A stretch of DNA of 64,000 nt from Candidatus Avimonas caecicola (GTDB lineage: Bacteria; Bacillota; Clostridia; Oscillospirales; Acutalibacteraceae). Location: contig CAJFTG010000002.1 in the NCBI GenBank assembly GCA_904419875.1, positions 24,039 to 88,038 of the forward strand, in the 5' to 3' direction. This document shows, piece by piece, positions 5,901 to 24,081 of the stretch. The position numbers and the translations under genes were made by a program. Position 1 is the stretch's first letter. The number at the start of each line of letters is the position of its first letter. The notes below the pieces were generated by a model. That model searched no databases, had not been told where the DNA came from, and saw nothing but the letters and a program-made list of their open reading frames with translations.

Positions 5901-5934
5901 AAAAGCCGCCGGCATCTCTGCCGGCGGCTTTTTC
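5901..5934 (+). terminator. Rho-independent terminator (potentially bidirectional)
   Basis: aaaagccgccggca-tctc-tgccggcggcttttt: an 11-bp GC stem flanked by an A-run and a T-run, 58 nt after the stop at 5843. Confidence 0.8.
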
Positions 5935-5950: not shown

Positions 5951-5977
5951 CGGGGCAAACGGGGCAAACGGGGCAAA
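5951..5977. repeat. 3 x 9-bp tandem repeat (cggggcaaa)
   Basis: Read directly from the sequence: cggggcaaa cggggcaaa cggggcaaa, in the intergenic region between convergent genes. Confidence 0.9.
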
Positions 5978-6139: not shown

Positions 6140-7786
6140 TTATTCCGCGTCGGGCGGCGGCGCGTCCTCCCCTTCCGGGGGTGTCCCGCCGTCAGGCGGA
6201 ACGGCCCCGCCCATCCTCGGCCGGATTACGAAGTACCAGAGGCAGAACCCTCCGCCGCCGAGCAGGACAACCGCTCCCGCCACGATCAGCGCCACTCCCC
6301 AGCCGGGAAGCCCGCCGCCCGTTTCCTCCGGTCCGTCGCCGCCCGCCGAGGCGCCGGGACCGGTCGGGCCGCCCGTCTCCTCCGTTTCGCCGGAGGGAGC
6401 GGTGGTCCCGCTCCGGGAGGCTGTCGTTCCCCCGTCCAGGGACGGGCCGGTCGTACTGTCGCCGGTGGGGTCGGTCGCCTCAGGCTCCGGGTCCTCGCCG
6501 CCGGAGGAGGGGCTGTCCGGTTCCCCGCCCCCGTCCGAAGGCGGCGTTTCCCCGCCGCTGTCGGCCGCACCGAGCACCTCGCTCACCCGCACGTTGTCGA
6601 ACAGGATGCCGAAGCCGGCGGGCTGCTGCGCCAGGTTGATGAACAGCCGCAGGCCGTAAATCGACTCCGCCTCAAACGCAGTGGGGGTGTATTCCACGAT
6701 CACCCGCTTGTAGCCGTTGGAAAGGGCCTCGCCCACGTCGTTCTTGATGAGGTTGACGTTGCTCCAGCCGCCGGTGTTGCCCACCATCCTGTCCGCGTCG
6801 GCCATAAAGGAAACGTGGGCCTGCAGGCTGTCCTCCCGGGTGGTTCCCAGGAACTTGTAGTCAAACATCAGGCGGTAGGTCCTGCCCGCCTGCAGCTTTT
6901 CCTGAAAGTTGACATAGACCGAGCCGTAGTTCAGCATCATGTTGCCCTGCATGCGCAGCACCCTGGAGCCGCCGTCCTCGACGACGGTGGAGGCCATCTT
7001 ATCGCCGTCCACCGTCCACCAGCCGTTGACGTCGAAGGCGGGGTCGTACAGGCTGCCGGTCTTCTTGTACTCGAAGTCGCCGCCCTTCACCAGGTTGGTG
7101 GAGGAGAGGTTCACCGCGCCGGCCTCGCCGGCGGAAAGCCCCAGCTTGGAGATCTCCACATTGTCCACCAGCAGGCTGGCCTCGCTCCCCAGCACTTTGC
7201 CGCTGTAGTTGAACTCCGCGAAAAAGCGGATTGCCTTGAAGGTGCCGGGGGATTCCACCACGAAGGTGCCGGTCACCTTCCGCCAGCCGTCCCCCATGTC
7301 CTCCCCGGGCAGGGGCGCCAGGCCGGCGATGATGGTATGGGTGGCGCCGACGCCTCCGTCCATCACGTCGCAGTGGAGCTGGTTGGTCTTGGTCAGCGGG
7401 TCGGTCACCTTGTACAGGAAGCTGACCTGATAGGTTTCGGAGCGCTGGATATGGCCGGTGGGGAAAATGAAGTAGGCCGCGCCGTAGGCGTTTTCGCCGT
7501 TGCCGGCGATCTGCAGGCAGCGCCCGCCCTGATAGCCCTGGTTCACAATGCTGACGGTCGCATAATCGTACTCGTTGGAGCGCCAGCCCTGGGTTGCCGA
7601 GAGTTCCTCGTTGGTCCCCTCCTGGGGCAGCGCGCCCAGCGGCACCGACTCAAAGGTGCCGGTGCAGAAGTTCTCCCCGGCGGTGACCCGGTATGCCGTG
7701 CCCGACTGGGTTTCGGCCGCCGCCGGGATGGCGGCCGCCGACAGCAGCACCAGGGCTGCCGCCGCCAGGCTGATTCCTTTTTTCAT
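6140..7786 (-). CDS. Membrane-anchored surface protein with two CBM4/9-like carbohydrate-binding modules
   Basis: The ATG at 7786 is preceded by GGAGGAGG. Signal peptide MKKGISLAAAALVLLSAAAIPAAA. Two beta-sandwich-like modules (NFCTGTFESVP... and NLVKGGDFEYK...). A Gly/Pro/Ser/Thr/Glu linker leads to a C-terminal TM helix and a 25-aa tail. The ORF-track N-terminal extension to 8050 overlaps the upstream gene and is Arg/Pro-rich. Confidence 0.8.
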   Translation of the reverse strand: MKKGISLAAAALVLLSAAAIPAAAETQSGTAYRVTAGENFCTGTFESVPLGALPQEGTNEELSATQGWRSNEYDYATVSIVNQGYQGGRCLQIAGNGENAYGAAYFIFPTGHIQRSETYQVSFLYKVTDPLTKTNQLHCDVMDGGVGATHTIIAGLAPLPGEDMGDGWRKVTGTFVVESPGTFKAIRFFAEFNYSGKVLGSEASLLVDNVEISKLGLSAGEAGAVNLSSTNLVKGGDFEYKKTGSLYDPAFDVNGWWTVDGDKMASTVVEDGGSRVLRMQGNMMLNYGSVYVNFQEKLQAGRTYRLMFDYKFLGTTREDSLQAHVSFMADADRMVGNTGGWSNVNLIKNDVGEALSNGYKRVIVEYTPTAFEAESIYGLRLFINLAQQPAGFGILFDNVRVSEVLGAADSGGETPPSDGGGEPDSPSSGGEDPEPEATDPTGDSTTGPSLDGGTTASRSGTTAPSGETEETGGPTGPGASAGGDGPEETGGGLPGWGVALIVAGAVVLLGGGGFCLWYFVIRPRMGGAVPPDGGTPPEGEDAPPPDAE

Positions 7787-7817
7787 GGGATGTTGCCTCC
7801 TCCCCCTTGCGGGACAA

Positions 7818-9311
7818 TTATCCGCGGCGGCGGCGCGACGCGCCAACCGCCGCAGCGGAAGCGGCCGCCAGCAGCAGGACCGGAACGGCGGCAGAAACGA
7901 CGCCGGTTTCCGGGTTGTCGGTGCTGCCGGGCTTTTCCGGTTCCGTGGGGCCGGTCGGGCCGGCGGGCTGTGTGGGGCCGGCGGGCTGCGTGGGGCCGTC
8001 CGGATGTTCCGTAGTCTCGTCCACGTCCGCAAGGTCGTACAGCGAAACATTGTCTATGAAGAGGCCGGTATCGCTGCCGGCGCCGCCGAGCTGGATGAAG
8101 AAGCGCAGGTCGGTGAACAGCGAGGTCTCAAACGCGGAGGGGGTGAAATCCACGGCGACGCGGGTATACCCGTTTTCCAGCGCTTCGCCCGGATGGGTCA
8201 GCAGGTTCACGGTGTACAGCCCGCCGGCGCCCAGGGTCTGCACGGCGCCGTCGTTGAGGATTTCGGCGTGGGCCTGCAGGCTGATTTCATCGGTGTTGTC
8301 GATGAACTTGTAGTCAAAGGACAGACGGTATGTATGGTCCGCCGTCAGCTCGGGGAGCCGGTACAGGGCCACGCCGTAGGCCAGGGCGTTGTTCCCCGCC
8401 AGGCGGAGGACCTTGGAATTGCCGTCCCGGGTGACGGAGGTGGACTCATAGTCCCAGACGGTGGAGCCCCAGCCGTTGTCGTCGTAGGTGGTGGCGAGCT
8501 GCTCGCCCAGGCCGTAATCCTCAAAGTCGCCGGCCTTGATCAGGTTGGTGTCGCTCCGGTTTTCCGGCGCGTCGGCATCCGCGGTCAGGGCCGCTTCGCC
8601 GACCTGCACGTCGTCAAACAGCACATACGCGTCGCTGCCGAGGGAGGGCGTGCCGTCCGGCTGGCGGAAGTCCGCAAACAGCCGCAGGAAGGTGCGTTCG
8701 CCGAACGCCTCGCAGGCGATGGTGCCGGTGACGCGGTACCATCCGCCCCCTACCGGCGTGCCGAGCTCGGCGATGCCGCAGAGCTCTTCAGTAATCGGCA
8801 CCGCGCCGGGGTCGTCCTTCACCACGATGATCGGCTCGCCGGCCGCATACACCGTGTTGCCGACAATATGGGCGTGGAGCTGGACGCCGCCCTCCTTCAT
8901 CGCGTCGGAGAGCTTGTAAAGGAAGGAGACCGCGATCACGTCCTTATCGCCGAATTCCCCGGCGCTCACCGGCAGCTTGTAATACGCCGCGCCGAACGCC
9001 TTGCTTCCGTCCCCGGCGAGCTTGAGGGCGTTCCCGCCGCCGAAGCCTTCGCCCTCGGCCACCGCGGCGCCGATGTCCGCCGGGTTGGAGAACCAGCCGC
9101 CGGTCGCGGACAGGTCCTGCCCCACGACGGTATCCTGATCGTACAGGGGCAGCGCGCCGGCCGGGGCGTCCTCAAAATCGCCGCCGGCGCAGAAGTTGCG
9201 GATGCCCCATTCATAGACGGCGCCGGGCGCGGCGGCGAAGGCCGTCACCGACGCGGCGAACACCATGGACAGGGACAGTACAAGGGAAAGCGCTTTTTTC
9301 ATGGTTTTCAT
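7818..9311 (-). CDS. Sortase-anchored surface protein with two CBM4/9-like modules (paralog of 6140..7786)
   Basis: GGAGG lies 7 nt before the ATG at 9311. Signal peptide MKTMKKALSLVLSLSMVFAASVTAFA. Modules NFCAGGDFEDAP... and NLIKAGDFEDYG... run parallel to the neighbouring gene. PTQPAG repeats are followed by NPETG, a hydrophobic stretch and RRRRG. Confidence 0.85.
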   Translation of the reverse strand: MKTMKKALSLVLSLSMVFAASVTAFAAAPGAVYEWGIRNFCAGGDFEDAPAGALPLYDQDTVVGQDLSATGGWFSNPADIGAAVAEGEGFGGGNALKLAGDGSKAFGAAYYKLPVSAGEFGDKDVIAVSFLYKLSDAMKEGGVQLHAHIVGNTVYAAGEPIIVVKDDPGAVPITEELCGIAELGTPVGGGWYRVTGTIACEAFGERTFLRLFADFRQPDGTPSLGSDAYVLFDDVQVGEAALTADADAPENRSDTNLIKAGDFEDYGLGEQLATTYDDNGWGSTVWDYESTSVTRDGNSKVLRLAGNNALAYGVALYRLPELTADHTYRLSFDYKFIDNTDEISLQAHAEILNDGAVQTLGAGGLYTVNLLTHPGEALENGYTRVAVDFTPSAFETSLFTDLRFFIQLGGAGSDTGLFIDNVSLYDLADVDETTEHPDGPTQPAGPTQPAGPTGPTEPEKPGSTDNPETGVVSAAVPVLLLAAASAAAVGASRRRRG

Positions 9312-9385
9312 ACAGTAACCTCCTTGAAATGGATTCTCCCTTTTGCGGACAGATCTATGGAAAGGCCGTCCGGTGGGGACAGGCC

Positions 9386-10345
9386 CTATTCCCCGGTAAT
9401 CCCGCTCTTGTCAATGCTTTCAATCAGCCTGCGCTCCACCAGAACATAGATCAGGAGCAGCGGGAGGATGGAAAGCACGGCCGCCGCCATCTCGATCCCC
9501 TCGTTGAGCCGGGCTTCGATGCTGTCGGTATCCACCGAGGGATACATCCGCAGGAAGCTGTCGCGGAACCGCTCGAGCGCCAGCGGCAGGGTGACCAGGT
9601 CTTTGCCGAAATAGGTGTCCGCCGCCGACGTCTCGTTCCAGTTCCACACCAGAGAGAAAATGAAGACGACCACGGTGGCGGGCGTTGCGGTGCGCAGGTT
9701 GATTTTCAGGAAAATCCCCGGCTGGCTCGCCCCGTCGATCGCCGCCGCCTCGTCCAGGGAGGGCGGGGACATGCGGAAAAACTGATAATAGATCAGAATG
9801 AAAATCGACTGCTTCAGCCCCTGCCCGAGCAGGGAGGGGAGCAGCACCGGCAGGATGGAATTGTCCAGCCGGTACGAGGTAAACATCACGTATTCCGGCA
9901 GGAAGGAAACCTGGCTCGGGATAAAGAAGGTGGCGAGCATCAGCGCAAAAAGGATCTTTTTGAACGGGAAATCGTGCTTGGCGAACCCATAGGCGATCAT
10001 GGCGGAAACGGCGGTCTGCGCCACGGCGATAATCCCCATGTTCACCAGGGTGACCAACGCGGTCCGGTATCCGCCCAGCGCATTGTACGCCTTGACAAAG
10101 TTGCCGAAGTTGAACGAGGTCGGAAGCCAGCGCACCAGGGGGTCCACCAGGTCATAGGCATCCTTGCCGCTGGCGGAGAGGAAGCAGAAAATCGGGTAGA
10201 GAAATGTGAAGCTCACGCCGGTGAGCAGGACATAGATCACCGCCCGGGACAGGACGGACGGCCTGCCTCCCGCGCCGGTGAAAATCCGCCGGAGCGTCCC
10301 CCTTGTCCATTTCCGCCCGCGGCGGGAGGGACGAATTTCGGTCAT
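9386..10345 (-). CDS. Carbohydrate ABC transporter permease (MalG type)
   Basis: GGAGGGAA Shine-Dalgarno (SD, ribosome-binding site). 319-aa multi-TM protein with an EAA loop (LDEAAAIDGASQPGIFLKINLR). Confidence 0.9.
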   Translation of the reverse strand: MTEIRPSRRGRKWTRGTLRRIFTGAGGRPSVLSRAVIYVLLTGVSFTFLYPIFCFLSASGKDAYDLVDPLVRWLPTSFNFGNFVKAYNALGGYRTALVTLVNMGIIAVAQTAVSAMIAYGFAKHDFPFKKILFALMLATFFIPSQVSFLPEYVMFTSYRLDNSILPVLLPSLLGQGLKQSIFILIYYQFFRMSPPSLDEAAAIDGASQPGIFLKINLRTATPATVVVFIFSLVWNWNETSAADTYFGKDLVTLPLALERFRDSFLRMYPSVDTDSIEARLNEGIEMAAAVLSILPLLLIYVLVERRLIESIDKSGITGE

Positions 10346-10375
10346 ATGGCTGTTCCCTCCTTTCAGGAAAACCGG

Positions 10376-11326
10376 TCAGCCCCGGATCTTGTACCGCCTC
10401 GCCGCGCGCTTCTGCTGCCGGGCCAGCCGGCGGCGGCGTTTGCGCAGCGCCTTTTCCTTCTGCTTCAGGATGTCCTTCTCCCGGCGCCCGAACACAAGGA
10501 ACGCGACCGCCAGAGCCGCCAGGATGAGCAGGAAATACAGCCAGGACGCCGCCGAGGAAAAGCCGAAGCCCTGGGAGGGGGCGAACATCCCCTCCTCAAT
10601 CACGGCGATAAACGGGCTGAGGGAGGACATGGAGATGTCCACCACGGTGTACACCGCGATCAGCAGGATAAACGGCCGGACCATGGGGATGGTGATTTTC
10701 CAGAACTGCTGCCAGGCCGACGCGCCGTCCACCATCGAGGCTTCATACAGCGAGCGGTCCACCTTTTGCAGGCCGGACAGGAAAATCAGCACCTGCACCC
10801 CGCTGAACCAGAAAATCAGCACAATGTTCTGCACGATATACTGGATCGGCGCCGCCAGCAGCGGCGGGACCTGGGTGTTGATAAACTCAAACACAAAGAA
10901 GTCCCCGGCGCCGGGCAGTTCGGTGGCCCCTACGTCCCGCACCTTCTCCAGAATCGGGCCGCTGATGAGGACGACCGGGAGGAAGAAGATCGCCCGGTAA
11001 ACCCGCTGGCCGCGGATATGGCTGTTCAGCAGCAGGGCGAAAAGCAGGGAAAACACCACCACCATCGGCACCATAAACACCATCTGCTGGAGGTAGGTGG
11101 GAATGCCCAGGGTGAAATCCGGGTCGGTAAACAGCACGTCGGTGTAGTTTTTGAGGCCCACCGGCTCGGTACGGGTGCCGTGCGGGGTGATGGTCACGCT
11201 GGAAAAGCTGTACAGGATGGTCTGCGACAGCGGGTAAACCAGGAACACCGCAAAGCCGACGACCCAAGGCAGAACCAGGCAGAAGCCGAACAGCTTCTTC
11301 CGGGTGGAATATTTCATGATCTTCAC
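10376..11326 (-). CDS. Sugar ABC transporter permease (MalF type)
   Basis: GTG start at 11326, 8 nt after GGAGGG (alternative ATG at 11317). N-terminus MKIMKYSTRKKLFGFCLVLPWVVGFAVFLVYPL and loop LYEASMVDGASAWQQFWKITIP are typical. Confidence 0.9.
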   Translation of the reverse strand: MKIMKYSTRKKLFGFCLVLPWVVGFAVFLVYPLSQTILYSFSSVTITPHGTRTEPVGLKNYTDVLFTDPDFTLGIPTYLQQMVFMVPMVVVFSLLFALLLNSHIRGQRVYRAIFFLPVVLISGPILEKVRDVGATELPGAGDFFVFEFINTQVPPLLAAPIQYIVQNIVLIFWFSGVQVLIFLSGLQKVDRSLYEASMVDGASAWQQFWKITIPMVRPFILLIAVYTVVDISMSSLSPFIAVIEEGMFAPSQGFGFSSAASWLYFLLILAALAVAFLVFGRREKDILKQKEKALRKRRRRLARQQKRAARRYKIRG

Positions 11327-11349
11327 GCGGCTTTCCCTCCTTTCCGGGC

Positions 11350-13623
11350 TCAGCCCGCCGAGGCGATGCAGACGGCCTTTCCCGCGGGCACCGTGACGCC
11401 CTCCGCCTGCACCGCATACCCGTTGTAATTCACCAGGACGGTCCGGCCGTTGTCGTACCGCACCACGGATACGCCGTCCTCCGGGCAGCTCCGTCCAACG
11501 GCCGCGGCGCCCGATACCTGGGCCAGCACCGCGTCCACCTGCGCATAAACCTCGCGGATTTCCCCCAGATAATCGTCAAAACGGGAGGAGTACACCGTGT
11601 TGGTGTGGCAGTTGACAAATTCGTCCGAAGACGCCTCGGTCAGCAGATAGGCCGGGTAGACGTTGTAGTCGATCAGCCGCAGGACGGCGTTGTTCCCGCC
11701 CGCGCCAAGGTTCAGCCAGGGCGCAAAGCTCCGGATATGCCCGCCGGTCACCATCTGGGCGAAGGGCACGGCGTCGGTTTCGAAGATATACCGCGAATGC
11801 TGCATATCCACGTTGTAAACAACGTCGGCAAAGGCCAGCGCGTACTGGGACGGGGCCTCGAGCGCCACCAGCCCGCTGGCTTCCCGCAGGGCCCGGAGGT
11901 TCTCCTGCGTGGCGGCCAGCATTTCCGCGCGGGTCATCTCCCGCCCTTCCTTGAAATTGCTGTACAGGGCGCCGCCGATGCCCGGCAGGGCGGCGTTGCG
12001 CTTGTAGGCCGGGAGCCCGGCGTACGAATCCACCAGGCGGGAAACCGTCGGGGCGTCCAGATAATACCGGCTGCTGAAAAGATTGCCGGTGTCGGGCGTG
12101 CTGGTGAACACCCGGTTGATCGCATACAGGAAACCGCTCCGGCGGTACTGGCCCTCGTACGCGCGGCTGAACTCTTTGCTCAGCAGGAGGCCGGAACCGG
12201 GGACGTTCAGCGTGTTGTAAAGCGCCTCCAGCTCCTTTTCGCTGCCCACGCGCCCCTCCAGCGCGTAGCTGCCGGCGTCCCCGCCGCTGTACCCGCCCTT
12301 TTCAAAGCCGTGCAGGGACAGCAGAAGGTTAGGGATCCCCGCCTCCCGCAGCCGGGCCGCCCAGTCCGCCGCGTCCTCCAGGGTGGTAAACACCCGGGTG
12401 GAGGTGCCGAACAGGGAAGCGGCCTGGTCGGCCATAAACGCCTGCACATACAGCGGGATATGCTCCAGGGCCTCCTGCCGCCCCGGCAGCGCCCCCTGCG
12501 CCGCCAGTTGCTCCCGGTAGGCATTCGCCATCCCGGCATAGCTGGCGTCCTCCCCGCTGAGCAGGGTGTAGGTCACCTCCGCGTTGACGGCGTTCGGGGT
12601 CTGCTGCACCACGTCGAAGCCCTCCGATGACCCGGTGGACTGGCGGTACTGCTCCCGGTAGATGAAGACGGGGGACATCCAGTGGAAATCGATCTTGACC
12701 CCGGCAGGGCTGATTTCAAAGCCGGCATAGGTTTCGCCGCCGGTGATCGTCCCCAGGAAGCCGTTCTGGTTGTACCCGTGCACCGCCCCGTACACCGGGA
12801 AGAGCAGGTTTTTGACCGGGGTGGGCGCCAGCCCGTCCCGATAGGCGGCCGGCGCCTGGACGCTGGCATCCGCGCCGTATACCCGCAATAGGGTGGAGGA
12901 ATTGTAGGTTTTGGGTTCCTCGAACCGCATCAGCGCGCCGCAGCCGTCCGGAATGAAGAAATAGCCGGGGATGCTGTCGGCATACGCGGAGCCGAGGAAG
13001 GGCATCACATACAGCCGGGCAAGCCGGTTGTCCTCCTTGTTGAACACCATCTCGTCGTCCGGCACCCGGACGGTAAATCCCTCGTCGGTCAGGGTGATAT
13101 ACACCCGCACGCTCGCATCCGGTTCCTGAAACCGGAGGGTGGCGGCGAGGCCGTCTTCGGTATACACAAGGCCGGCGGTCTCCCGGCTGTACCGGGCGGA
13201 GGAGCGCAGGCTTGCGCCGGTGGCGTTGAAATAGTCCATGGTCAGGAACGCCCGGGAAAAACGCCGCCAGGTTCCGGTCATCGACTGGGCCTCGTTTGCC
13301 GCCGCGCCGCTGGACCAGAGGTAATCCCCCTGCTTGTCCAGCACCTTGACGATAAATTCCTCCTCGTCCACATACAGCGCGAGGCGGTCGTTTTCGCAGA
13401 CCAGCCGGTCGGTGTCCAGGAGCTGCTCGCTCTCCGCCGTGCCCTCCATGTCCTTTTTCACCGTGTAGTCAACGCTTGCCTGCGGGGACAGGGGCCGGGA
13501 ATCCGCCGCCCCGCCGCCGTCACCCTCCTCGCCAAGGGCCGCGCTTCCCGCCAGGAAGGCGGCCGCGCAGAGCAGGGCGGCCGCCCCAAGCAGCCGTTTT
13601 CCGGTTTTTGTCCCGTTAATCAC
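11350..13623 (-). CDS. Large secreted protein of unknown function (DUF5696-like)
   Basis: GTG start at 13623, 7 nt after GGAGGTG, overlapping the upstream stop by 8 nt (GTGATTAA). Signal peptide GKRLLGAAALLCAAAFLAGSAALG. 757 aa with no motif I can assign. The family guess rests on the recurring gene neighbourhood (Yip1 plus sugar permeases) that I recall from Firmicute genomes. Confidence 0.75.
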   Translation of the reverse strand: MINGTKTGKRLLGAAALLCAAAFLAGSAALGEEGDGGGAADSRPLSPQASVDYTVKKDMEGTAESEQLLDTDRLVCENDRLALYVDEEEFIVKVLDKQGDYLWSSGAAANEAQSMTGTWRRFSRAFLTMDYFNATGASLRSSARYSRETAGLVYTEDGLAATLRFQEPDASVRVYITLTDEGFTVRVPDDEMVFNKEDNRLARLYVMPFLGSAYADSIPGYFFIPDGCGALMRFEEPKTYNSSTLLRVYGADASVQAPAAYRDGLAPTPVKNLLFPVYGAVHGYNQNGFLGTITGGETYAGFEISPAGVKIDFHWMSPVFIYREQYRQSTGSSEGFDVVQQTPNAVNAEVTYTLLSGEDASYAGMANAYREQLAAQGALPGRQEALEHIPLYVQAFMADQAASLFGTSTRVFTTLEDAADWAARLREAGIPNLLLSLHGFEKGGYSGGDAGSYALEGRVGSEKELEALYNTLNVPGSGLLLSKEFSRAYEGQYRRSGFLYAINRVFTSTPDTGNLFSSRYYLDAPTVSRLVDSYAGLPAYKRNAALPGIGGALYSNFKEGREMTRAEMLAATQENLRALREASGLVALEAPSQYALAFADVVYNVDMQHSRYIFETDAVPFAQMVTGGHIRSFAPWLNLGAGGNNAVLRLIDYNVYPAYLLTEASSDEFVNCHTNTVYSSRFDDYLGEIREVYAQVDAVLAQVSGAAAVGRSCPEDGVSVVRYDNGRTVLVNYNGYAVQAEGVTVPAGKAVCIASAG

Positions 13624-15646: not shown

Positions 15647-15686
15647 GCAACCCTTCCTTTCTTGGACAAAGCGGAGCCGATCGGCC

Positions 15687-16562: not shown

Positions 16563-16586
16563 GGATGGGACCTCTCCTTTCCCGCG

Positions 16587-17555
16587 TCAGTCGCGCTCCG
16601 CAAAGAATTTGTTGGCCAGCTGCGACACCAGAAGAATCAGAAGGAGCAGCAGCACCGACAGCGCCGCGGCATAGCCCATGTTGTACTGCAGGAAGCCCTC
16701 GTCCGTGATGTGGGAGACCATCGTCTGCCCGGCGTACTGCGGCGTCGGGTTGGAACCGGTCAGGTCGACGCCGATCTGCCCCGCCGAAAAAGCGTTGACA
16801 ATCGCCATCACCGCGCCGAACAGCATCTGGGGCTTCATGGAAGGGAGGGTGATATAGACAATCTCCTGAAAGCGGTTGCGGATCCCGTCGATATAGCCGG
16901 CCTCGTAGATCTCCGAATCGCCGTTGAGCACCCCGGCCAGCATGGACAGAAAGCCTACGCCCATGCTGGACCAGAGGGAGGCGACAATCATGATCGGCAG
17001 GATATAGTCCGGCGATACCAGCCACTGGATGGGGGTGTCGATCAGGCCGAGGGTGAGCAGGAAGTTGTTGAGATAGCCGTACTCATCCCCGGCAAACACC
17101 ACCTTCCACACCACCGACAGGGTGACGCCGGCGGTCATGGAGGGGGAATAAAAGATCAGCGCCAGGATGGTGCGCGGCCAGCGGGAGATCTGCGCCAGGG
17201 ACCAGGCGAGCAGAAACTGGAGCACAAAGCCGCCGGCCCCCACAACGACCGAGAAAACCATCATGTTCGGCAGGACGTTGCGCATGAGCACGTCGTCCTG
17301 GGTCAGCGCCTGGATATAGTTGGCCAGGCCGTTCCACTCCGGAGGGTTCACCATGTTGAAATAGGTGAAGCTCAGGATAATGGCCACAGCGATGGGTGCG
17401 GCGACAAAAAACAGGAACAGCACGCCGTAAGGACCGAGCAGCAGCGTATTGGACAGGAGGTCCCCCCGGCGCCGGGCTCTCCGGCCGCGGGACGGCTTCT
17501 CCTTTTTCTCCCCGTTTTCCCCTTTTCCGCCCTTCACGGCTGCCCCTCCTTCCAT
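16587..17555 (-). CDS. Sugar ABC transporter permease (MalF type), second pair
   Basis: AGGAGG lies 7 nt before the ATG at 17555, inside the 3' end of the upstream SBP gene (22-nt overlap). Loop [23 protein letters not shown]. Lys/Gly/Arg-rich N-terminal tail. Confidence 0.88.
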
Positions 17556-20452
17556 CGGTCGACCTCCTCGCCGGTGACGACTTCAAACGGCCTGACGATG
17601 TGGCCCTGCGCATCCATATAGCCGAACTCCTGCAGCTTCAGGGCAATTTCCCGGTTGCAGGTCAGAATCGCCTTGTCCAGCGCGGCGCGCGGCGTCTCCC
17701 CGCTGTAAACCACGCTGTTCCAGGCGTTGGACAGCTCGCGCTCCACCGCATAGTAGGCCGGGTTGCGGGGGACCTCCTTCGTCTGTTCAATCTGCTCCAG
17801 AATGATCGCCAGATCCTCCGGGTCGAACGCGGTGCTCTCCCTGAGCGCGGTGAGGTTGGCGGTGTTCCAGATATACTCCGGCCCGTTTTTCAGATACAGC
17901 TCCCGGGTATAGTCCGCCTGGGTCCCGGCGGACAGCCACCATTTCAGGAATTCCCAGCCCTCCTGATGCTTGTCGCTGTCCTGAAGCATGACGCAGCCGG
18001 TGCTGACCGCCAGCTGGCTGCGGTTGATGCTGCCGTCCTCCTGCTCCACGCCCACCGACGGGGCGATCCCCCACTGCCCCTTGATTTCCGGGGCGGCGTT
18101 CTGCAGAAGGATGTAGGTGGAGATATCCGACATGCCGATCGGGGTGACGCCCTTTTTAAAATTGTTGTAGAAGTTGGGGATCGACACGGGCAGGCTGTAC
18201 CGGGTGTACAGGTCGGTCATCAGGGTAAAGGCTTCGACGGTGTCCGGGTCGCCCAGCAGTACCTGGCTGCCGTCCTGCGAGTACAGCTTTCCGCCGAACT
18301 GGTTGATAAAGGGCATGGTCGCCCCGAAATGCTTGAGGGATTCCAGATTGGCAAGATAGGTGTTGTAGCTCATGCCGTACCGGCTGAGCACCGGCAGGAT
18401 CTCCAGCACCTCGTCCCAGGTCTGCGGCACCTCCAGCCCCAGGCTCTCCAGGATGTCCCTGCGGTAAAACTGCACCACGAAATTGCAGGTTTCGGGCAGG
18501 CCGAAGCACCGGTCGTCAATGCAGAAAATCGTAATCATTTCGGAATGAAAATCCCGGATGAATTCCCCGAAATCCGGGAACTGCCGCAGGTCGCACAGCG
18601 CGCCGCGCAGCCCGAAGTCAAACGGCCGGTAGGTGGTGGTGCCGAGCACCACATCGGGAGCGCTGCCGGCCGACACGGCAAAAAGCAGCTTCTGTTCGTC
18701 CGCCATGATGGAAAAATTGACGTTCCCCCCGTAGCTTCGCTCCGCCAGCTCCCGCAGGGCCTCCACGTGGAAGGTGGAACGGCCGACCCAGACGTTCAGC
18801 TCCTCCTCGGAGGTGGCGGAGGCGAGGTCGTAGTCCGCCACAAAGGTGTAGAACAGTTTTTCCACCTGCTTCCACAGCCCCTCGAAAAAGCCGGCCTCAT
18901 GGTGCCGCAGGTCCTCGGTGCGCGGGGACAGCAGGATTTGGTCGATCCCCATGGGCTGGTCGAGCAGGTCGTCCATAATCAGCGACACCCGCTCGGCGAC
19001 CGAGCCGCTGCCCTGGGAGAAGTAGGCGATGTTGTTGATGAAATAATCCAGATCCTCGGCGTACCGCCGCAGGGTGGAGGCCGCCACCTGCAGGTCGGCC
19101 ACGGCGGATATGGTCCGCTTTTCAGCCAGGGAGGCGATCGTCTCATAGGCGGAGCCGACCATCCCCGCGATGGACGACAGCTCCGACCGGATGTCGGGAA
19201 GGAACTCTTCCAGGTTCCAGTCCCGGTCTTTGTCCACCTTGTTGCCGGTCACCTTTTTGACCTCGAGCGCGATGCGGTTGATCTCGTTGACCGCTTCCTG
19301 CAGCGTTTCGTAGGTTTCGAACAGCGGCGAGGCGGTGCTTTCCAGGGTCAGGGTATGCTCGCCCTCCGCCAGGTAAATCCCCGCCGGGCCGCCCCCGGCG
19401 CTGACGACCGCCGTATCCAGGCCGTGCCCGGTATAGGGGAACGGGTAGCTCTGCAGCTCCGCAAAGGGGGTTTCCCCGTCGATGCGGATGTTTTTGAACA
19501 CCGGCATGCTGGACTTTTCAGACTGGCTGTAGCGCAGGCCCAGATAATACACGCCGCTCTGTTCCACCCGGAACGTATAGGTGACGGCGTTGCCCGGCTC
19601 CGCCCACATGGCGGCGGAAAGCATATTGATCCGACTGGAGGCGGGGGAATACGGGGTGCAGTTGTAATCCCGCGTCTTCTCTCCCCGTATGTAGGAGTGA
19701 GACTTCCAGGCATACTTCTCCCCTTCCAGCACAATGGCGGGGGCCTGTGACGCGCCGCCCTCCCCCACGCCGGCCGTTTGGGCATACTGCGCGTAGGACG
19801 GAGGGGCCTCCCAGGCGCCGAAGCGGATCTCCCGCACCTGGCAGGAAACGTTGTTTGACTGGATGTCGATGGTGTTGGACCCCTGCTCCAGCTCGAAGAC
19901 CAGGGGGACGTTGAGGTTGTAGACCGTGCTGTTGAGAGCCGCCGTCTGCCAGGTCGGCACATGCTCCGGCAGCGGGTACACCTCGTTGTGGAAGCGGTCG
20001 GTTTTATACTCCTGCGACTCGTCCCTCCACACCGAGGGAAGGGTGATCTCCCGGCTGTCGGTAAAGGGATATTCCCCGTTGATCTGCACGGAAACCGACA
20101 GGTCCTGGGTGGTCTCCTCCGGGATGCGGTAATCCAGAAAAAGGATGTACCCGCCCGCCGCGGCGCAGTCCACCGTGAAGGAAAGCCGGGCCTGGGGCTC
20201 CAGCGTGAGATACGGCCCGTCCCCGTCCGCCTCCCCGGACAGGCTGACGCCGGACGCCTCCGCCGTCAGCCGGATCTCCCCGGGCGACACGGCAAACGCC
20301 GCGTCAGACGATACCAGGTTGTCCGGCCGGTCCTGCTGCCACTGATAATAGGACGGAAGGGTTTCCGCGGTCAGCGCGCCGGCGGGAAACGCCGGGCAGA
20401 TGAAAAGCACGGCCGCCGCCGCGGCTGCCATGCGCCTGATTCGGCTTCGCAA
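17534..20452 (-). CDS. Giant (~970 aa) extracellular solute-binding protein with two N-terminal CBM6/35-like modules
   Basis: My preferred start is the TTG at 20452, 7 nt after GGGAGG. It gives the signal peptide (M)[27 protein letters not shown]. An alternative ATG lies at 20431, and the ORF-track start at 20590 lacks a signal peptide. There are two beta-sandwich-like modules (…[12 protein letters not shown]… and …[12 protein letters not shown]…), a helical linker, then a family-1 SBP domain in the C-terminal ~430 aa. Confidence 0.8.
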
Positions 20453-20522
20453 GACAGGGCCTCCCTTCTCGGATGCCTCTGCCGCCCGCCGCTGGCGGGC
20501 GGCAGAGGCCTTCGTTTTCTCG

Positions 20523-22010
20523 TCAGCCGGTGATATCCTTCCAGGCGGTTTCCGTGGTCGCGTTGATGGTGTCCTGGAGGTTCTGCGCAATGTCCGCCGC
20601 CGTCTGGGAGCCGGTGTACAGGATATTCTGCGTCACCTGATTGGTGACCAGGTTCTCCCAGGTGTTGTTGTACTCCGGCACAATCCGCCAGCAGTCCACA
20701 TAACCGCGGTCAAAGTTGTCCAGCATATAATCGATGCCCGGCTTGTAGCCGACATCCATGCTCTTCCACAGCTCCACGGCTTCGGGGTCGCTGATGGGCA
20801 GCAGGGACAGGGATTCGATCGCGTCCGGCAGGTCGGCGGCGATGTCCGGGTATTTCTCCGCCGTCGCCTGTTTGTCGTAGCTGTTGATGATGTCCACCTT
20901 GTCGCGGTAGCCCTCCAGGTCATAGCTCATATAGCGGATAAGCTCCCATGCCTCCTCCGGGTGCTCGCAGCTGGTGGTGATGCCGTAGTAGTCCACGCTC
21001 AGGCCGGGACGGGACACGTCGCCTTCACCGGAGGAGGGGAAGGGATAATAGTCCCACTCAAAACCGGTGTAGGCGGGATCGGTTTTGTCGAAGCGCAGCG
21101 TCCAGGAGAAATCCTCCTGAAAGGCGACCCGGCCGAGCGCCCAGGGGTTCTCGGTGGTGCCGACCGTCTGCATGAGATAATCGTTGCGCTTCTCGATAAC
21201 CTCCGTCTGCTCCGCCGACCCTTCCTCAAAGTTGGCGGGCAGGCCGATCGCGTCGATATTCTCCCAGATCACATAATCCCGGTCGACGATCTCCTTCATC
21301 AGGTTCACCGTCTCGATCCATTCTTCCCCCAGGGTATATTTTTGGGTCGAGTAGTTGTAGGCCGCCCAGCCGAAATCATCGTTCATCTGGGCCGGCAGGT
21401 GCTTCATCAGCCAGATGATGTTGTTGGCGCCGATGGATTCGCCCTTGACCGAGGCCGCCTCCATGATGTCCATGAAGTCGTCGATGGTCCAGTCGTACCC
21501 CGGCTTCTCGATATTCAGGTCTTCCAGCAGCGTCAGGTTTACCTTGACGCCATGCAGGAACACGTTGCTGGGAAGCACGTACAGCTTGTCGCCAATCGAA
21601 CCGAACTGAATGAAGTTTTCGTATATCGCCTGATTTTCGTCCTGCTCATAGTATGGCTTCAGATCGATGAGCCATTCGTTTTTAACGGGGGTGTACACGT
21701 TTTCGACATTGATGATATCCGGCATTTTATCCGCCGCCGCCAGCTGCGCCAGATCTTCGGTGCCGAGCCATTTGCCCTCCTCCGCCAGCTCAACTTTGAT
21801 GTTCGGATGCTTTTCGGTGAATTTTTCCATCCAGGGGGCTTTCAGGGCGTTGACCTCCCAGCTCGCCAGCGTCAGGGTGACGGGTTCGCCGTCTCCGCCG
21901 CCCGTTCCCTCGGAACCGGTCCCGCCCTCTCCGGGCTTACAGCCCGCGGCAAAGCCCATGACCAGAGTGGCCGCACAGGCCAGACCGAGCAGTCTTGCGA
22001 TTTTCTTCAT
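20523..22010 (-). CDS. Extracellular sugar-binding lipoprotein (ABC SBP), first gene of the operon
   Basis: The ATG at 22010 is preceded by GGGAGAGG. Lipobox MKKIARLLGLACAATLVMGFAAGC followed by a Gly-rich linker. 495 aa. Confidence 0.88.
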   Translation of the reverse strand: MKKIARLLGLACAATLVMGFAAGCKPGEGGTGSEGTGGGDGEPVTLTLASWEVNALKAPWMEKFTEKHPNIKVELAEEGKWLGTEDLAQLAAADKMPDIINVENVYTPVKNEWLIDLKPYYEQDENQAIYENFIQFGSIGDKLYVLPSNVFLHGVKVNLTLLEDLNIEKPGYDWTIDDFMDIMEAASVKGESIGANNIIWLMKHLPAQMNDDFGWAAYNYSTQKYTLGEEWIETVNLMKEIVDRDYVIWENIDAIGLPANFEEGSAEQTEVIEKRNDYLMQTVGTTENPWALGRVAFQEDFSWTLRFDKTDPAYTGFEWDYYPFPSSGEGDVSRPGLSVDYYGITTSCEHPEEAWELIRYMSYDLEGYRDKVDIINSYDKQATAEKYPDIAADLPDAIESLSLLPISDPEAVELWKSMDVGYKPGIDYMLDNFDRGYVDCWRIVPEYNNTWENLVTNQVTQNILYTGSQTAADIAQNLQDTINATTETAWKDITG

Positions 22011-22250
22011 TGCGTACCTCTCCCTTTCCTTGCAGAGCATTGTGTTTTCGGCGTTTCAGGGAAAACCCCGGAACCATTGTCCGTTACTTCCGGGGCAGCG
22101 ATTCCCTGAATTGGTTTCCCCGGGGACGTTTCCTCAAGGTCGTTCCCCTTTGTCCGCGTTTATGATTTCCTTTTTCCCGCTTTTCAGCCATATCCGCCGG
22201 TTGCGGCGGATATGGCCGTCCGCTCTGGCCGCCACCTCCCTCTTTTCAAA

Positions 22251-22270
22251 AATAACATCGATGTCACAAC
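22251..22270. promoter_or_regulatory. Candidate LacI-family operator (site a): aataACATCGATGTcacaac
   Basis: 10-bp perfect palindrome ACATCGATGT with a central CG. It shares A(C/T)AT(C/T)GATGTC with the sites at 22438..22457 and 24064..24081. Confidence 0.45.
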
Positions 22271-22437
22271 CGACAGAAAAAGCCGCCGGGTTGTGGGTTT
22301 GATAAAGGGTTTTCCTTAGTTTTTTTCCTGTATTACATGGTTGTTTGTGATAATTCACAACAAATCCTTTTTCTCCTTCGGTTCTTCCCGGCTTCTTCTC
22401 CGGTCTTCCCTCATCGATTCTCCCCTTTCAAGAAAAA

Positions 22438-22457
22438 AGTGATATCGATGTCTTACC
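22438..22457. promoter_or_regulatory. Candidate LacI-family operator (site b): agtgATATCGATGTcttacc
   Basis: Same ATCGATGTC core as site a. A weaker tcATCGATtc lies at 22411..22420. Confidence 0.4.
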
Positions 22458-22532
22458 AGCCTCAAATCAAGCACAATTCTCGCCGGCAGCCGGTATGCAC
22501 CGCTGCCAAGAATTGTGCTGCACAGCCGGGTC

Positions 22533-22559
22533 CCACGGATTCCACGGGTTCCACGGGTT
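22533..22559. repeat. 3 x 9-bp tandem repeat (ccacggatt ccacgggtt ccacgggtt)
   Basis: Read directly from the sequence, inside the long leader of the SBP operon. Confidence 0.9.
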
Positions 22560-22604
22560 CCTTGGCCCCTTTGGATTTCCCGGTTTCCTCCATAATTCGT
22601 TTTC

Positions 22605-22633
22605 AGTATAGTACGCCACGTTTTATTTGTCAA
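22605..22633 (-). promoter_or_regulatory. Near-consensus sigma-A promoter for the ten-gene ABC/Yip1 operon
   Basis: The minus strand reads TTGACA-17 nt-TATACT (-35 at 22633..22628, -10 at 22610..22605). It lies 25 nt downstream of the LacI stop and about 590 nt upstream of the first start codon. Confidence 0.6.
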
Positions 22634-24031: not shown

Positions 24032-24060
24032 TTGACAATTTTCCTTTCTGCATGTATTCT
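24032..24060 (+). promoter_or_regulatory. Sigma-A promoter for the GH172/DUF4185-like operon
   Basis: TTGACA (24032..24037), 17-nt spacer, TATTCT (24055..24060). The operator-like palindrome starts 4 nt downstream. Confidence 0.55.
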
Positions 24061-24063
24061 GAA

Positions 24064-24081
24064 TGTAACATTGATGTCACA
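24064..24081. promoter_or_regulatory. Candidate LacI-family operator (site c): TGTAACATTGATGTCACA
   Basis: 14 of 18 positions are self-complementary. It shares the ACAT(C/T)GATGTCACA core with site a and overlaps the predicted transcription start. Confidence 0.5.

Follow-up and report, generated by a model that had tools for sequence, protein, structure and literature searches.

The window, the whole 64-kb stretch of Candidatus Avimonas caecicola DNA that was analysed, contains ten minus-strand genes spanning positions 22010..6140 that form one operon (Table 1). Gene boundaries were taken from the list of open reading frames and from inspection of start codons, and domains from Pfam. The original prediction described a single operon with spacings of 70, −22, 24, 40, −8, 23, 30, 74 and 31 nt, which we reproduce exactly: at all nine junctions the genes overlap or are no more than 74 nt apart, and a promoter and a terminator bracket the ten genes. 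Public gene calls made independently on this DNA recover all ten products (495, 965, 322, 291, 676, 757, 316, 319, 497 and 548 aa for genes 1–10), the sole mismatch being the start of the giant solute-binding protein (SBP), ATG 20431 in the public calls versus TTG 20452 here. A strong terminator, which the original prediction did not mention, occurs only after gene 10. Signals that could divide the genes into independent transcription units are no more frequent inside the operon than in shuffled sequence (5 promoter-like matches versus 4.3 ± 2.4; 29 terminator-like matches versus 19.7 ± 6.3). The predicted lack of an ATPase holds across the whole 64-kb window, where a search for the ABC ATPase motif pair found none. 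Like this absence, the promoter, terminator, hairpin and operator-like elements were observed directly.

Table 1. Features of the ten-gene operon and its surroundings, in window coordinates.
Feature	Position	Strand	Remarks
Bidirectional intrinsic terminator	5901..5932	.	14-bp perfect stem, A and T runs either side; fold energy −32 kcal/mol, z = −4.4
Gene 10, surface protein, 548 aa	6140..7786	-	Two CBM_4_9 modules; C-terminal TM anchor
Gene 9, surface protein, 497 aa	7818..9311	-	Two CBM_4_9-like modules
Gene 8, MalG-type permease 2, 319 aa	9386..10345	-	BPD_transp_1, E = 1e-13
Gene 7, MalF-type permease 2, 316 aa	10376..11326	-	BPD_transp_1
Gene 6, DUF5696 protein, 757 aa	11350..13623	-	PF18952, 461.6 bits; N-terminal hydrophobic segment
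Gene 5, NHL-TPR-Yip1 protein, 676 aa	13616..15646	-	NHL β-propeller, TPR, TM segment, Yip1 polytopic domain
Gene 4, MalG-type permease 1, 291 aa	15687..16562	-	BPD_transp_1
Gene 3, MalF-type permease 1, 322 aa	16587..17555	-	BPD_transp_1; overlaps giant SBP gene stop
Gene 2, giant SBP	17534..20452	-	972 aa (TTG 20452) or 965 aa (ATG 20431); SBP_bac_1/8 in C-terminal part
Intercistronic hairpin	20475..20509	-	Perfect 16-bp GC stem, no U-run; −50 kcal/mol, z = −4.9
Gene 1, SBP1, 495 aa	20523..22010	-	Family-1 lipoprotein, lipobox ...GFAAGC; SBP_bac_1, E = 3e-16
Leader, ~595 nt	22011..22604	-	Two operator-like palindromes and a conserved inverted repeat
Operator-like palindrome TGACATCGATGTTA	22253-22266		In leader of operon
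Operator-like palindrome GACATCGATATC	22441-22452		In leader of operon
Conserved inverted repeat AGCACAATT / AATTGTGCT	22511-22519 / 22470-22478		In leader of operon
Sigma-70-type promoter	22605..22633	-	TTGACA-17-TATACT; 11/12 consensus matches
LacI-family regulator, 336 aa	22658..23668	-	LacI and Peripla_BP_1/3; directly upstream of promoter
Divergent promoter	24032..24079	+	TTGACA-17-TATTCT; followed directly by operator-like TAACATTGATGTCA
GH172 gene	24425-25513	+	DUF2961, E = 5e-99 (Pfam); downstream of divergent promoter
Two DUF4185 genes	25510-29166	+	Pfam E = 1e-13 and 7e-11; downstream of divergent promoter

The promoter lies where the original prediction had placed it. Its −35 hexamer is invariant and its −10 hexamer conserved in the window and in three related genomes (L001, L002 and L004), all of which carry the LacI-family regulator in the same position. 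In four genomes the palindromes and the inverted repeat of the leader are unchanged amid sequence that has diverged, and an Rfam search of the leader gave no family match. The operator-like 12-mer has 6 strand-hits versus 0.55 expected by chance; TAACATTGATGTCA matches it with one mismatch, and the palindrome is common to the ten-gene operon and the divergent GH172/DUF4185 operon. From the promoter to the first ATG is a distance of ~595 nt, with the operator-like boxes far downstream of the promoter, and a second, unrecognised promoter is possible. Between the SBP1 and giant-SBP genes, hairpins with perfect stems of 14–16 bp and different sequence recur in the same three relatives and in Paenibacillus (L081); the conserved hairpin probably causes parts of the transcript to be expressed at different levels.

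SBP1 has a ribosome-binding site and start codon, and its closest solved relatives are sugar SBPs. The giant SBP runs from a signal peptide through two CBM6/35-like β-sandwiches and a helical bundle or stalk to a family-1 SBP domain. Against PDB profiles, its SBP part matches Lin1841 (E = 1e-34), and residues 299–397 match residues 431–519 of CITase, the CBM35 region of that enzyme (E = 9e-8). The AF2 model of its N-terminal 560 aa (pLDDT 82.5) matches isolated CBM35/CBM6 modules in Foldseek with target TM-scores of 0.63–0.74; the CBM label given to this protein in the original prediction stands by fold but not by Pfam. A lipobox is absent in 50 of 58 orthologues, and a mostly non-lipidated giant SBP poses an anchoring problem. 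All four permeases carry EAA loops, as do 195 of 200 permease orthologues (42/42 and 43/43 for MalF- and MalG-type permease 1, 52/56 and 58/59 for MalF- and MalG-type permease 2), and the top named NCBIfam similarities of MalG-type permease 1 are UgpE, GlcU and MalG. Family-1 SBPs, BPD_transp_1 permeases and EAA loops together support the identity of a sugar importer.

Between the two permease pairs lie the NHL-TPR-Yip1 and DUF5696 genes. In the former, Pfam recognises NHL (E = 1e-10) and TPR_19/TPR_2, with Yip1 at 28.5 bits versus a cut-off of 28.6, and hydropathy gives 1 + 1 + 5 TM segments. Many Ruminococcus loci encode the NHL-TPR-TM part and Yip1 as two proteins; because both fused and split forms occur, the two parts appear functionally tied. 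The 8-nt overlap with the DUF5696 gene is found in the window and also in L005, L006 and L086.

The original prediction called gene 6 DUF5696-like; the family was right, and the protein is a full member rather than a mere likeness (E = 5.5e-138). Profiles and predicted structure also make it a distant relative of GH129, whose members NagBb (α-N-acetylgalactosaminidase) and ZgGH129 (3,6-anhydro-D-galactosidase) share the predicted three-domain fold of β-sandwich, (β/α)8 barrel and β-sandwich (AF2 model, pLDDT 85, pTM 0.87; TM-scores 0.64/0.72). The top Foldseek matches of the model are the GH129 structures 5opq and 5wzn (E = 1e-23 to 9e-28), and profile comparisons with GH129 reach E = 1e-11 to 1e-12, including E = 1.3e-11 for NagBb, with an hhalign probability of 97.8%. 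By two methods, E589 of the window protein aligns with NagBb E478, where 65 of 80 sequences have D or E. Unlike GH129, to which sequence identity is only 12–14%, DUF5696 has its own PDGCGAL motif, in the N-terminal domain and the most conserved of the family; the protein is either secreted or tethered to the membrane, and permease genes accompany it in every case. In the segment aligned with NagBb LHLDGW, DUF5696 lacks the Asp. The position aligned to the GH129 nucleophile (NagBb D435) is not acidic, and the nearest conserved Asp, at column 556 (D in 58 of 80 sequences), is Asn in the window's clade; hydrolase activity of the window protein is therefore uncertain. Because GH129 active sites are reportedly built from two protomers (bioRxiv 10.64898/2026.08.13.744632), catalytic residues could lie outside the barrel.

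The last two genes encode paralogues (37% identical, E = 7e-74). Gene 10 matches CBM_4_9 over two stretches (E = 4e-15) and starts at 7786 with a ribosome-binding site; gene 9 is sub-threshold for the same family (E = 0.006), and its translation ends in NPETG, a hydrophobic stretch and RRRRG, a sortase-type sorting signal. The giant SBP's CBM6/35-like fold and the CBM_4_9 modules of these two proteins support glycan binding.

The original prediction stated that permeases, a Yip1 protein, DUF5696 and an oversized SBP form a recurring combination in Firmicutes, which the synteny strongly supports. DUF5696 led to 54 genome loci with sufficient flanking DNA: 47 have giant SBP, MalF, MalG, NHL-TPR-Yip1, DUF5696, MalF and MalG in identical order at protein identities of 22–40%, and 3 have the same genes permuted. 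In the other 4, NHL-TPR-Yip1, DUF5696 and a MalF/MalG pair are accompanied by Yip1-HlyD-MacB in place of the giant SBP unit. The only set present in 54/54 loci is NHL-TPR-Yip1, DUF5696, MalF2 and MalG2; at every locus with sufficient flank MalF2 adjoins DUF5696. An independent look-up through distant DUF5696 homologues added five contigs with the cassette, including Paenibacillus and an Acholeplasmataceae-like contig that have the same order plus a leading SBP, and the cassette spans Clostridia, Bacilli and the latter lineage. Gene order, coupling, domain identities, fold relationships and EAA loops are, like this deep synteny, direct observations.

Not all ten genes belong to the conserved unit. 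The first eight are an uncharacterised Firmicute cassette with kept order, consistent with the original statement that no function had been assigned, and DUF5696 and PF18952 were mentioned nowhere in the literature searched. The pair of CBM_4_9 proteins is not part of it but a lineage-specific addition, with orthologues only in L001–L004, the window's close relatives. The leading SBP belongs to it in some lineages only, occurring at the SBP1 position in L001, L002, L004–L006, Paenibacillus (L081) and L086. In most genomes the two permease pairs come with a single SBP, and only the presence of SBP1 completes a two-importer picture. Outside the cassette nothing is conserved between genomes. A carbohydrate context is given in the window by LacI, GH172 and DUF4185, and in other genomes by GH38, a PF10091 glycoamylase and a PfkB kinase with a sugar isomerase; adjoining regulators are of sugar type (LacI, GntR-PBP and ROK). 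Because the flanking enzymes differ, the context does not point to a shared substrate. A small ABC_tran gene sits immediately upstream of the cassette in 10 of 34 loci, on the opposite strand in those checked.

We consider it moderately likely that the locus is a LacI-controlled transcript of ~16.7 kb that joins this cassette to two lineage-specific surface lectins, and that it captures, trims and imports an extracellular glycan. From domain content, we infer each functional step, including the scaffold role, the hydrolase activity and the substrate, as follows. The anchored CBM_4_9 proteins would hold the polymer at the cell surface, aided by the giant SBP through its two CBM6/35-like modules. 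The membrane-proximal DUF5696 protein, a distant relative of GH129-type α-glycosidases, would remove or release sugar units, and the giant SBP and lipoprotein SBP1 would bind the products and pass them to the two separate permease pairs. The NHL-TPR-Yip1 protein may be a membrane scaffold that keeps the giant SBP, the enzyme or both beside the permeases, for which there is precedent in YknW, a Yip1 protein that modulates assembly of the YknXYZ ABC transporter (PMC4887032). Both pairs would be energised by an MsmK/MalK-type ATPase that they share and whose gene lies elsewhere in the genome, and the stable hairpin after the SBP1 gene would raise SBP1 expression relative to the distal genes.

It is unlikely, in our judgement, that DUF5696 is instead a glycan receptor or adaptor, a pseudo-glycosidase that with NHL-TPR-Yip1 stands in for the SBP that the second permease pair lacks and hands substrate directly to MalF2/MalG2. 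The invariant four-gene set, the mostly absent second SBP, the non-acidic nucleophile position and the clade's Asn fit such a role, as does the conservation of acidic barrel residues at only 72–81% versus ~95–98% for PDGCGAL. However, the acid/base-equivalent residue is widely kept, the high-confidence model has a complete GH129 fold, catalytic residues could sit outside the barrel, and lineages with SBP1 require no substitute. A receptor would further need a type I ABC importer that works without an SBP, and we know of none.

Quite improbable is a role for the cassette not in nutrition but in signalling or in the cell's own envelope, where it would recycle, remodel or sense a surface glycopolymer with Yip1 and propeller in an envelope-spanning assembly. 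This would suit the conserved cassette's lack of a cytoplasmic catabolic enzyme, the membrane glycerophosphodiester phosphodiesterase that follows it in 6 of 44 loci, and the variant loci, which join NHL-TPR-Yip1 and DUF5696 to a second Yip1, an HlyD-type adaptor and a MacB-type permease, as in YknWXZ-like export. Yet the cassette also occurs in the contig resembling Acholeplasmataceae, a wall-less group, and it lies beside sugar-type regulators and genes for glycoside hydrolases and sugar kinases. CUT1-type permeases paired with family-1 SBPs are, to our knowledge, solely importers of sugars and related solutes. Finally, although each half (SBP, MalF and MalG) resembles a standard CUT1 unit and a strong hairpin separates SBP1 from the remaining genes, a meaningless arrangement of two ordinary, independent sugar importers beside two unrelated genes is highly implausible, contradicted by overlapping junctions, by conservation confined to the cassette, and by synteny that retains all parts even when permuted, at identities of 22–40% that argue against recent horizontal copies of a single element.

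Besides the GH129 enzymes, three known systems come closest to the operon. It resembles Gram-positive CUT1 importers that share an MsmK-type ATPase in its family-1 SBPs, its MalF/MalG-type permeases with EAA loops, its sugar-type repressor, its lack of an ATPase gene at the locus and its glycoside hydrolase neighbours. Unlike them, it has two permease pairs within one operon and, translationally coupled between these, two conserved non-transporter genes; one SBP, of ~970 aa, combines a helical stalk with two CBM6/35-like modules and in most cases lacks a lipid anchor; and many cassette genomes have a single SBP for both pairs. As in the four-component YknWXYZ transporter of Bacillus (Yip1 protein YknW, MFP YknX and MacB-type YknYZ), a Yip1 protein is encoded with ABC permeases, and five variant loci bring Yip1, HlyD-type and MacB-type genes beside DUF5696. 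In contrast to that system, the window has neither an MFP nor a MacB-type permease, the Yip1 domain shares one polypeptide with an extracellular propeller and TPR, and the transporter it is paired with is of the type I importer class rather than an exporter. Gram-positive polysaccharide utilisation loci follow the same logic of repressor, anchored CBM proteins, extracellular enzyme and ABC importer, but here a fixed cassette of seven to eight genes moves between enzyme contexts in place of a substrate-specific collection of known glycoside hydrolases.

The unit conserved across genomes comprises seven genes, or eight with SBP1, the leading solute-binding protein (SBP), and its invariant part is NHL-TPR-Yip1, DUF5696, MalF2 and MalG2. 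This delimitation follows from a comparison of related loci and a census of their neighbours. A DUF5696 search with one genome per species gave 80 loci, mostly from Oscillospiraceae and Ruminococcus MAGs, in a sample biased to motif-keeping sequences because the locus search was anchored on the GYFFIPDGC motif of a 7-sequence alignment. Comparison by tblastn, with the window proteins split by domain as queries, bears out the original prediction that the combination recurs in Firmicutes: 47 of the 54 loci with enough flank carry, in this order, the giant SBP (counted as an N-terminal part and an SBP part), MalF1, MalG1, NHL(-TPR)-Yip1, DUF5696, MalF2 and MalG2, at 22-40% identity. Three more (L025, L030 and L038) have the same genes in permuted order. 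The other pattern, seen in 4 of the 54 (L049, L057, L061 and L070), is a variant in which NHL-TPR-Yip1 and DUF5696 are followed by a second Yip1, an HlyD-type adaptor and a MacB-type permease, then MalF2 and MalG2; L059 has the same variant and lies outside the 54, its upstream flank being too small. Neither an ATPase nor a family-1 SBP was found within the operon itself in these five variant loci. They belong to low-GC unclassified MAGs (for example, L049:7926-16595), the MacB-type permease consisting of PCD and FtsX and the Yip1 protein standing alone. Upstream in L061 lie genes for a PfkB kinase, an SBP_bac_5 protein and a xylose-isomerase-like protein.

Five contigs reached by protein search through distant DUF5696 homologues are free of the motif bias, and all of them, Paenibacillus sp. 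J5C_2022 (L081) and loci L083, L084, L085 and L086, carry the same cassette. Sugar-type regulators adjoin it, and the accompanying glycoside hydrolases vary. The DUF5696 protein of L086 shares a 90%-identity cluster with a protein of an Acholeplasmataceae MAG, and a leading SBP of roughly 470-500 aa is present in L081 and L086. On the 199,925-bp contig of L084, the giant SBP gives way to a pair of short ORFs (369 and 138 aa) that may be remnants of a decayed or truncated gene, and the remaining cassette is intact; this contig also has a DUF222/HNH gene, a type that we presume to be associated with Actinomycetota.

A Pfam census of the nearest neighbours (34 upstream, 44 downstream) found nothing else conserved, and the idea of reading a common substrate from these neighbours was dropped. 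An SBP1-like gene precedes the cassette in 6 of 34 loci and a membrane GDPD gene follows it in 6 of 44; among the related loci, CBM_4_9 proteins corresponding to genes 9 and 10 are restricted to L001-L004, the close relatives of the window. The ten-gene machine that had been proposed thus survives as a syntenic core of seven or eight genes, with the CBM_4_9 proteins and SBP1 as accessories; the underlying observation is confirmed and its interpretation supported. The DUF5696 family is large, with 4,080 clusters at 50% identity (E <= 1e-30), and no paper in the library that we searched contains 'DUF5696' or 'PF18952'.

Coordinates of the operon, its signals and its neighbours in the window
Feature	Position	Strand	Unit or remark
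Third sugar ABC system	83-5843	+	convergent on terminator; beginning outside window
Surface protein, ends SPETG, TM segment, RRRQR	83-1414	+	third sugar ABC system
MalG-type permease	1529-2551	+	third sugar ABC system
SBP, 429 aa		+	third sugar ABC system; public call
DUF4838 lipoprotein	3939-5843	+	third sugar ABC system
ORF, 739 aa	3900..6119	-	rejected as eleventh gene
Bidirectional terminator	5901..5932		end of ten-gene operon
Short tandem repeat CCCGTTTGC x3	5945-5975		between gene 10 stop and terminator
Gene 10, CBM_4_9 surface protein	7786-6140	-	ten-gene operon
Gene 9, CBM_4_9-like surface protein	9311-7818	-	ten-gene operon
Gene 8, MalG-type permease 2	10345-9386	-	ten-gene operon
Gene 7, MalF-type permease 2	11326-10376	-	ten-gene operon
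Gene 6, DUF5696	13623-11350	-	ten-gene operon
Gene 5, NHL-TPR-Yip1	15646-13616	-	ten-gene operon
Gene 4, MalG-type permease 1	16562-15687	-	ten-gene operon
Gene 3, MalF-type permease 1	17555-16587	-	ten-gene operon
Gene 2, giant SBP	20452-17534	-	ten-gene operon
SBP domain of giant SBP	17534-18770		gene 2
Hairpin, perfect 16-bp GC stem	20475-20509		between genes 1 and 2
Gene 1, SBP1	22010-20523	-	ten-gene operon
CG-centred palindrome TGACATCGATGTTA	22253-22266		leader block
Palindrome TTGTGAATTATCACAA	about 22338-22353		rejected operator
CG-centred palindrome GACATCGATATC	22441-22452		leader block
Inverted repeat AGCACAATT / AATTGTGCT	22470-22519	-	leader block
Operon promoter TTGACA-17-TATACT	22633..22605	-	ten-gene operon
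LacI-family repressor gene	22658-23668		directly upstream of operon
Divergent operon	24032-29166	+	
Promoter TTGACA-17-TATTCT	24032-24079	+	divergent operon; start site overlapped by TAACATTGATGTCA
GH172 (DUF2961)	24425-25513	+	divergent operon
DUF4185 lipoprotein-like gene	25510-27468	+	divergent operon
DUF4185 lipoprotein-like gene	27469-29166	+	divergent operon

In the window, gene spans set by inspection of start codons and ribosome-binding sites reproduce exactly the spacing first reported (70, -22, 24, 40, -8, 23, 30, 74 and 31 nt). Independent public gene calls contain the same ten products, along with the LacI, DUF4838, SBP and permease neighbours; the sole disagreement is the start of the giant SBP, an ATG at 20431 (965 aa) in the public call versus a TTG at 20452. 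Every domain call made from the sequence is backed by Pfam. The operon promoter scores 11/12, and three related genomes, with proteins 72-83% identical, have the same -35 hexamer and a conserved -10 hexamer. About 595 nt separate it from the first ATG, and the operon ends at a bidirectional terminator with a perfect 14-bp stem, preceded by a short tandem repeat. That these genes form a single operon is also sustained: promoter-like and terminator-like matches inside it are no commoner than in shuffled sequence. Internal terminators were considered and set aside, the minus-strand candidates being weak 5-7-bp stems within coding sequence, in a number within about 1.5 sd of the shuffles. An eleventh gene, suggested by an ORF 20 nt past gene 10, was likewise rejected: this ORF only shadows DUF4838, which is encoded on the plus strand (Pfam E = 1e-36).

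The sole strong internal structure of the operon is a GC hairpin without a U-run between the SBP1 and giant SBP genes (-50 kcal/mol, z = -4.9). The same junction in L001, L002, L004 and Paenibacillus holds a hairpin with a perfect stem of 14-16 bp and a different sequence. Hairpins that raise SBP expression relative to distal genes are known in other SBP-first ABC operons, and this one reads as a stabiliser or partial stop lifting SBP1 expression over the distal genes; it is no boundary separating independent units.

Within the long leader, three blocks are invariant across four genomes and the surrounding sequence diverges. The first is an inverted repeat whose arms are invariant around an interior of variable length and sequence; these arms may pair as an RNA stem or serve as two DNA half-sites, and four sequences are too few for a covariation test. 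The others are CG-centred palindromes; relative to the predicted start site, they lie 146 and 333 nt downstream. The start site of the divergent GH172 promoter is overlapped by a third copy of the palindrome, this one centred on TG, and the 12-mer at one mismatch or fewer gives 6 strand-hits against a chance expectation of 0.55. A LacI-family repressor gene lies directly upstream of the operon, as it does in L001, L002 and L004. This arrangement suggests one repressor for both the ten-gene and the GH172/DUF4185 operons, acting at putative operators, and the two may constitute one LacI regulon. Another leader palindrome, tried as a lac-type operator, is not conserved in L001, L002 or L004 and was dropped. 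No riboswitch or known RNA family reaches its gathering score anywhere in the window, the only match in the leader being PreQ1 at chance level (E = 0.38). The divergent operon has a GC-rich leader of about 358 nt.

The transporter parts resemble those of sugar importers. SBP_bac_1 matches gene 1 with E = 3e-16. In gene 2 its match has E = 3e-14 and is C-terminal, SBP_bac_1/8 covering the last 400 of roughly 970 residues; the PDB relatives of both genes are sugar SBPs. BPD_transp_1 is found in four proteins, making two MalF-like/MalG-like pairs whose best named similarities are UgpA/UgpE, GlcT/GlcU and MalF/MalG. All four window permeases and 195 of 200 orthologues keep the EAA loop, which predicts that each pair couples to an ATPase. 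As had been claimed, the operon has no ATPase, and no protein anywhere in the 64-kb window combines Walker A with LSGGQ; CUT1-type importers in Firmicutes usually share an ATPase whose gene lies at another locus. A simple motif scan of the related loci also finds no ABC ATPase, yet Pfam finds ABC_tran in 10 of 34; the scan is too strict for these loci, and the statement on the ATPase applies to the window. These matches are to a small gene (about 246-282 aa) just upstream of the cassette, at L014:931-1668 (-) and at the corresponding place in nine more Ruminococcus-clade loci. It is divergently oriented in those checked, and its product is too short for an MsmK-type ATPase.

The giant SBP combines this binding domain with predicted carbohydrate-binding modules. 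Among solved relatives, its SBP domain is nearest to Lin1841 (E = 1e-34), which we take to be a beta-1,2-gluco-oligosaccharide binding protein of Listeria. A model of the N-terminal 560 residues (pLDDT 82.5) has two beta-sandwiches and, after them, a bundle of helices about 160 residues long, and the sandwiches match isolated CBM35 (2w1w, 2vzp) and CBM6 (2cdp) structures at Foldseek target TM 0.63-0.74. A giant SBP profile matches CITase residues 431-519 (E = 9e-8), presumably the CBM35 region of that enzyme. Pfam gives no CBM match in the window protein, and the homologue P0033 has a weak CBM_35 match (E = 5e-5) below the cut-off. A signal peptide without a lipobox is found in 50 of 58 giant SBP orthologues; such an SBP is unusual in a Gram-positive bacterium, which raises the question of its retention.

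The Yip1 assignment (PF04893) of gene 5 is borderline, with 28.5 bits where the cut-off is 28.6. A score of 29.9 bits is reached by the stand-alone Yip1 of variant L049, and the orthologous parts in L081, L083, L085 and L086 have precomputed PF04893 matches. By hydropathy, the gene 5 product begins with a signal peptide and an extracellular propeller with TPR; a single TM segment and a basic cytoplasmic linker then lead to a Yip1 domain with five TM segments. In the window one protein carries both NHL-TPR and Yip1; in many Ruminococcus loci they are separate neighbouring proteins, a fusion and split pattern that ties them functionally.

Of the two surface proteins, gene 10 matches CBM_4_9 (PF02018) in two stretches (56.7 bits versus 25.9) and has a C-terminal TM anchor. 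Gene 9, its paralogue (37% identity, E = 7e-74), scores below threshold (17.5 bits), and its C-terminus is a sortase-type sorting signal (NPETG, hydrophobic stretch, RRRRG). The [NS]PETG form of this signal is common to gene 9 and the surface protein of the third sugar ABC system, which converges on the operon terminator.

Gene 6, originally called DUF5696-like, turns out to be a full member of the family (PF18952; E = 5.5e-138, 461.6 bits versus 25.6, model positions 6-610 of 612). Fold and profile identify DUF5696 as a distant relative of GH129. An AlphaFold2 model (pLDDT 85, pTM 0.87) has a (beta/alpha)8 barrel between two beta-sandwiches, one N-terminal and one C-terminal. Its top Foldseek matches in the PDB are both characterised GH129 enzymes, first the 3,6-anhydro-D-galactosidase ZgGH129 (5opq; E = 9e-28, TM 0.64/0.72) and then the alpha-N-acetylgalactosaminidase NagBb (5wzn; E = 1e-23); GH101, GH36 and GH31 come next. 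A 43-sequence DUF5696 profile finds NagBb (E = 1.3e-11) and ZgGH129 (E = 2.4e-7) by hmmsearch, and the hhalign probability is 97.8% (E = 9e-13). E478 of NagBb, which we take to be the acid/base Glu, aligns with window E589 in both alignments; the column is D or E in 65 of 80 sequences, and E589 lies, as read from the sequence, at a strand end, consistent with that role.

The nucleophile is less clear. NagBb D435, presumably the nucleophile Asp, aligns with a non-acidic column, and column 556, in an LY[GS]D motif four residues away, is Asp in 58 of 80 sequences; the register from the HMM and HH alignments is ambiguous by these four residues. Residue 556 is Asn in the window, L002, L004, L006, L025 and L030 and His in L003. 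Part of the family may be catalytically altered, and catalytic competence, in the window clade especially, is putative and unproven. The most conserved motif, G-Y-x-x-x-P-D-G-C-G-A-L (residues 220-231), lies in the N-terminal domain. In a GH129 enzyme, each active site is reportedly built by two protomers (2026 preprint, bioRxiv 10.64898/2026.08.13.744632), and residues beyond the barrel may therefore matter.

From domain content and conservation we infer, with moderate confidence, that the cassette is a cell-surface device for glycan capture, trimming and import. A polymer would be held by the CBM proteins together with the modules of the giant SBP, and the GH129-like DUF5696 protein would trim it. 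The two SBPs would feed two permease pairs, both energised by an MsmK-type ATPase from another locus. A membrane scaffold would be provided by the propeller-TPR-Yip1 protein, a role with a precedent in the Yip1 protein YknW, echoed by the variant loci carrying Yip1, HlyD and MacB genes. The main rival makes DUF5696 a non-catalytic receptor in place of the SBP that the second permease pair lacks; we consider it unlikely, and it feeds the most far-reaching reading, an importer coupled to an enzyme or adaptor without an SBP, which we consider equally unlikely. In this reading the cassette would encode a new kind of ABC importer supercomplex: the Yip1/propeller scaffold would hold the GH129-like protein and the unanchored, CBM-bearing SBP over two permease pairs, and the invariant quartet NHL-TPR-Yip1/DUF5696/MalF2/MalG2 would be an SBP-free, enzyme-coupled importer to which the enzyme or propeller hands substrate directly. 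The prospects are slightly poorer still for a role in the envelope of the cell itself: the cassette is present on a contig whose DUF5696 clusters with a protein of the Acholeplasmataceae, a wall-less group, and sugar regulators and sugar enzymes always surround it. The synteny contradicts the idea that two ordinary importers lie together by chance.

For the substrate of the favoured capture and import device, three leads diverge. In this genome, the operator-like motif connects the operon with GH172 and DUF4185 genes. We take DUF4185 to be GH183. D-arabinan is degraded by exo- and endo-acting members of GH172 and GH183, and the characterised relatives of these genes thereby offer a concrete candidate substrate class for this genome. 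The second lead joins the similarity of the giant SBP to the presumed beta-1,2-gluco-oligosaccharide binder with L086, in which a PF10091 'glycoamylase' gene (L086:12420-13757), of a family that we understand to be associated with beta-1,2-glucanases, comes after the cassette; a beta-1,2-glucan-type substrate is a possible, single-genome lead. The third is a GH38 alpha-mannosidase gene adjoining the Paenibacillus cassette. Together the leads fit a cassette reused with different enzyme sets.

Every part of the cassette comes from a known superfamily: CUT1 importer parts, a GH129-like fold, Yip1, NHL, TPR and CBMs. It resembles a CUT1-type ABC sugar importer in its family-1 SBPs and two kinds of permease with EAA loops; no MalK/MsmK-type ATPase is encoded in the 64-kb window. 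Unlike YknWXYZ, the Bacillus four-component transporter with a Yip1 protein, the window operon has neither HlyD nor MacB_PCD/FtsX, and HlyD and MacB-type parts appear only in the five variants L049, L057, L059, L061 and L070. We found no described system in which two permease pairs and a CBM-bearing, unanchored SBP are fixed together, nor one with a propeller-Yip1 membrane protein or a GH129-like DUF. In rumen and gut Oscillospiraceae, soil Paenibacillus and an Acholeplasmataceae-like lineage alike, DUF5696 is tied to one and the same set of transporter genes. Solving the cassette would give a function to DUF5696 and to the bacterial Yip1/propeller fusion and a reason for keeping two permease pairs together, and could reveal how glycan capture, cleavage and import are organised at a Gram-positive membrane, much as the SusCD paradigm has done for Bacteroidota.
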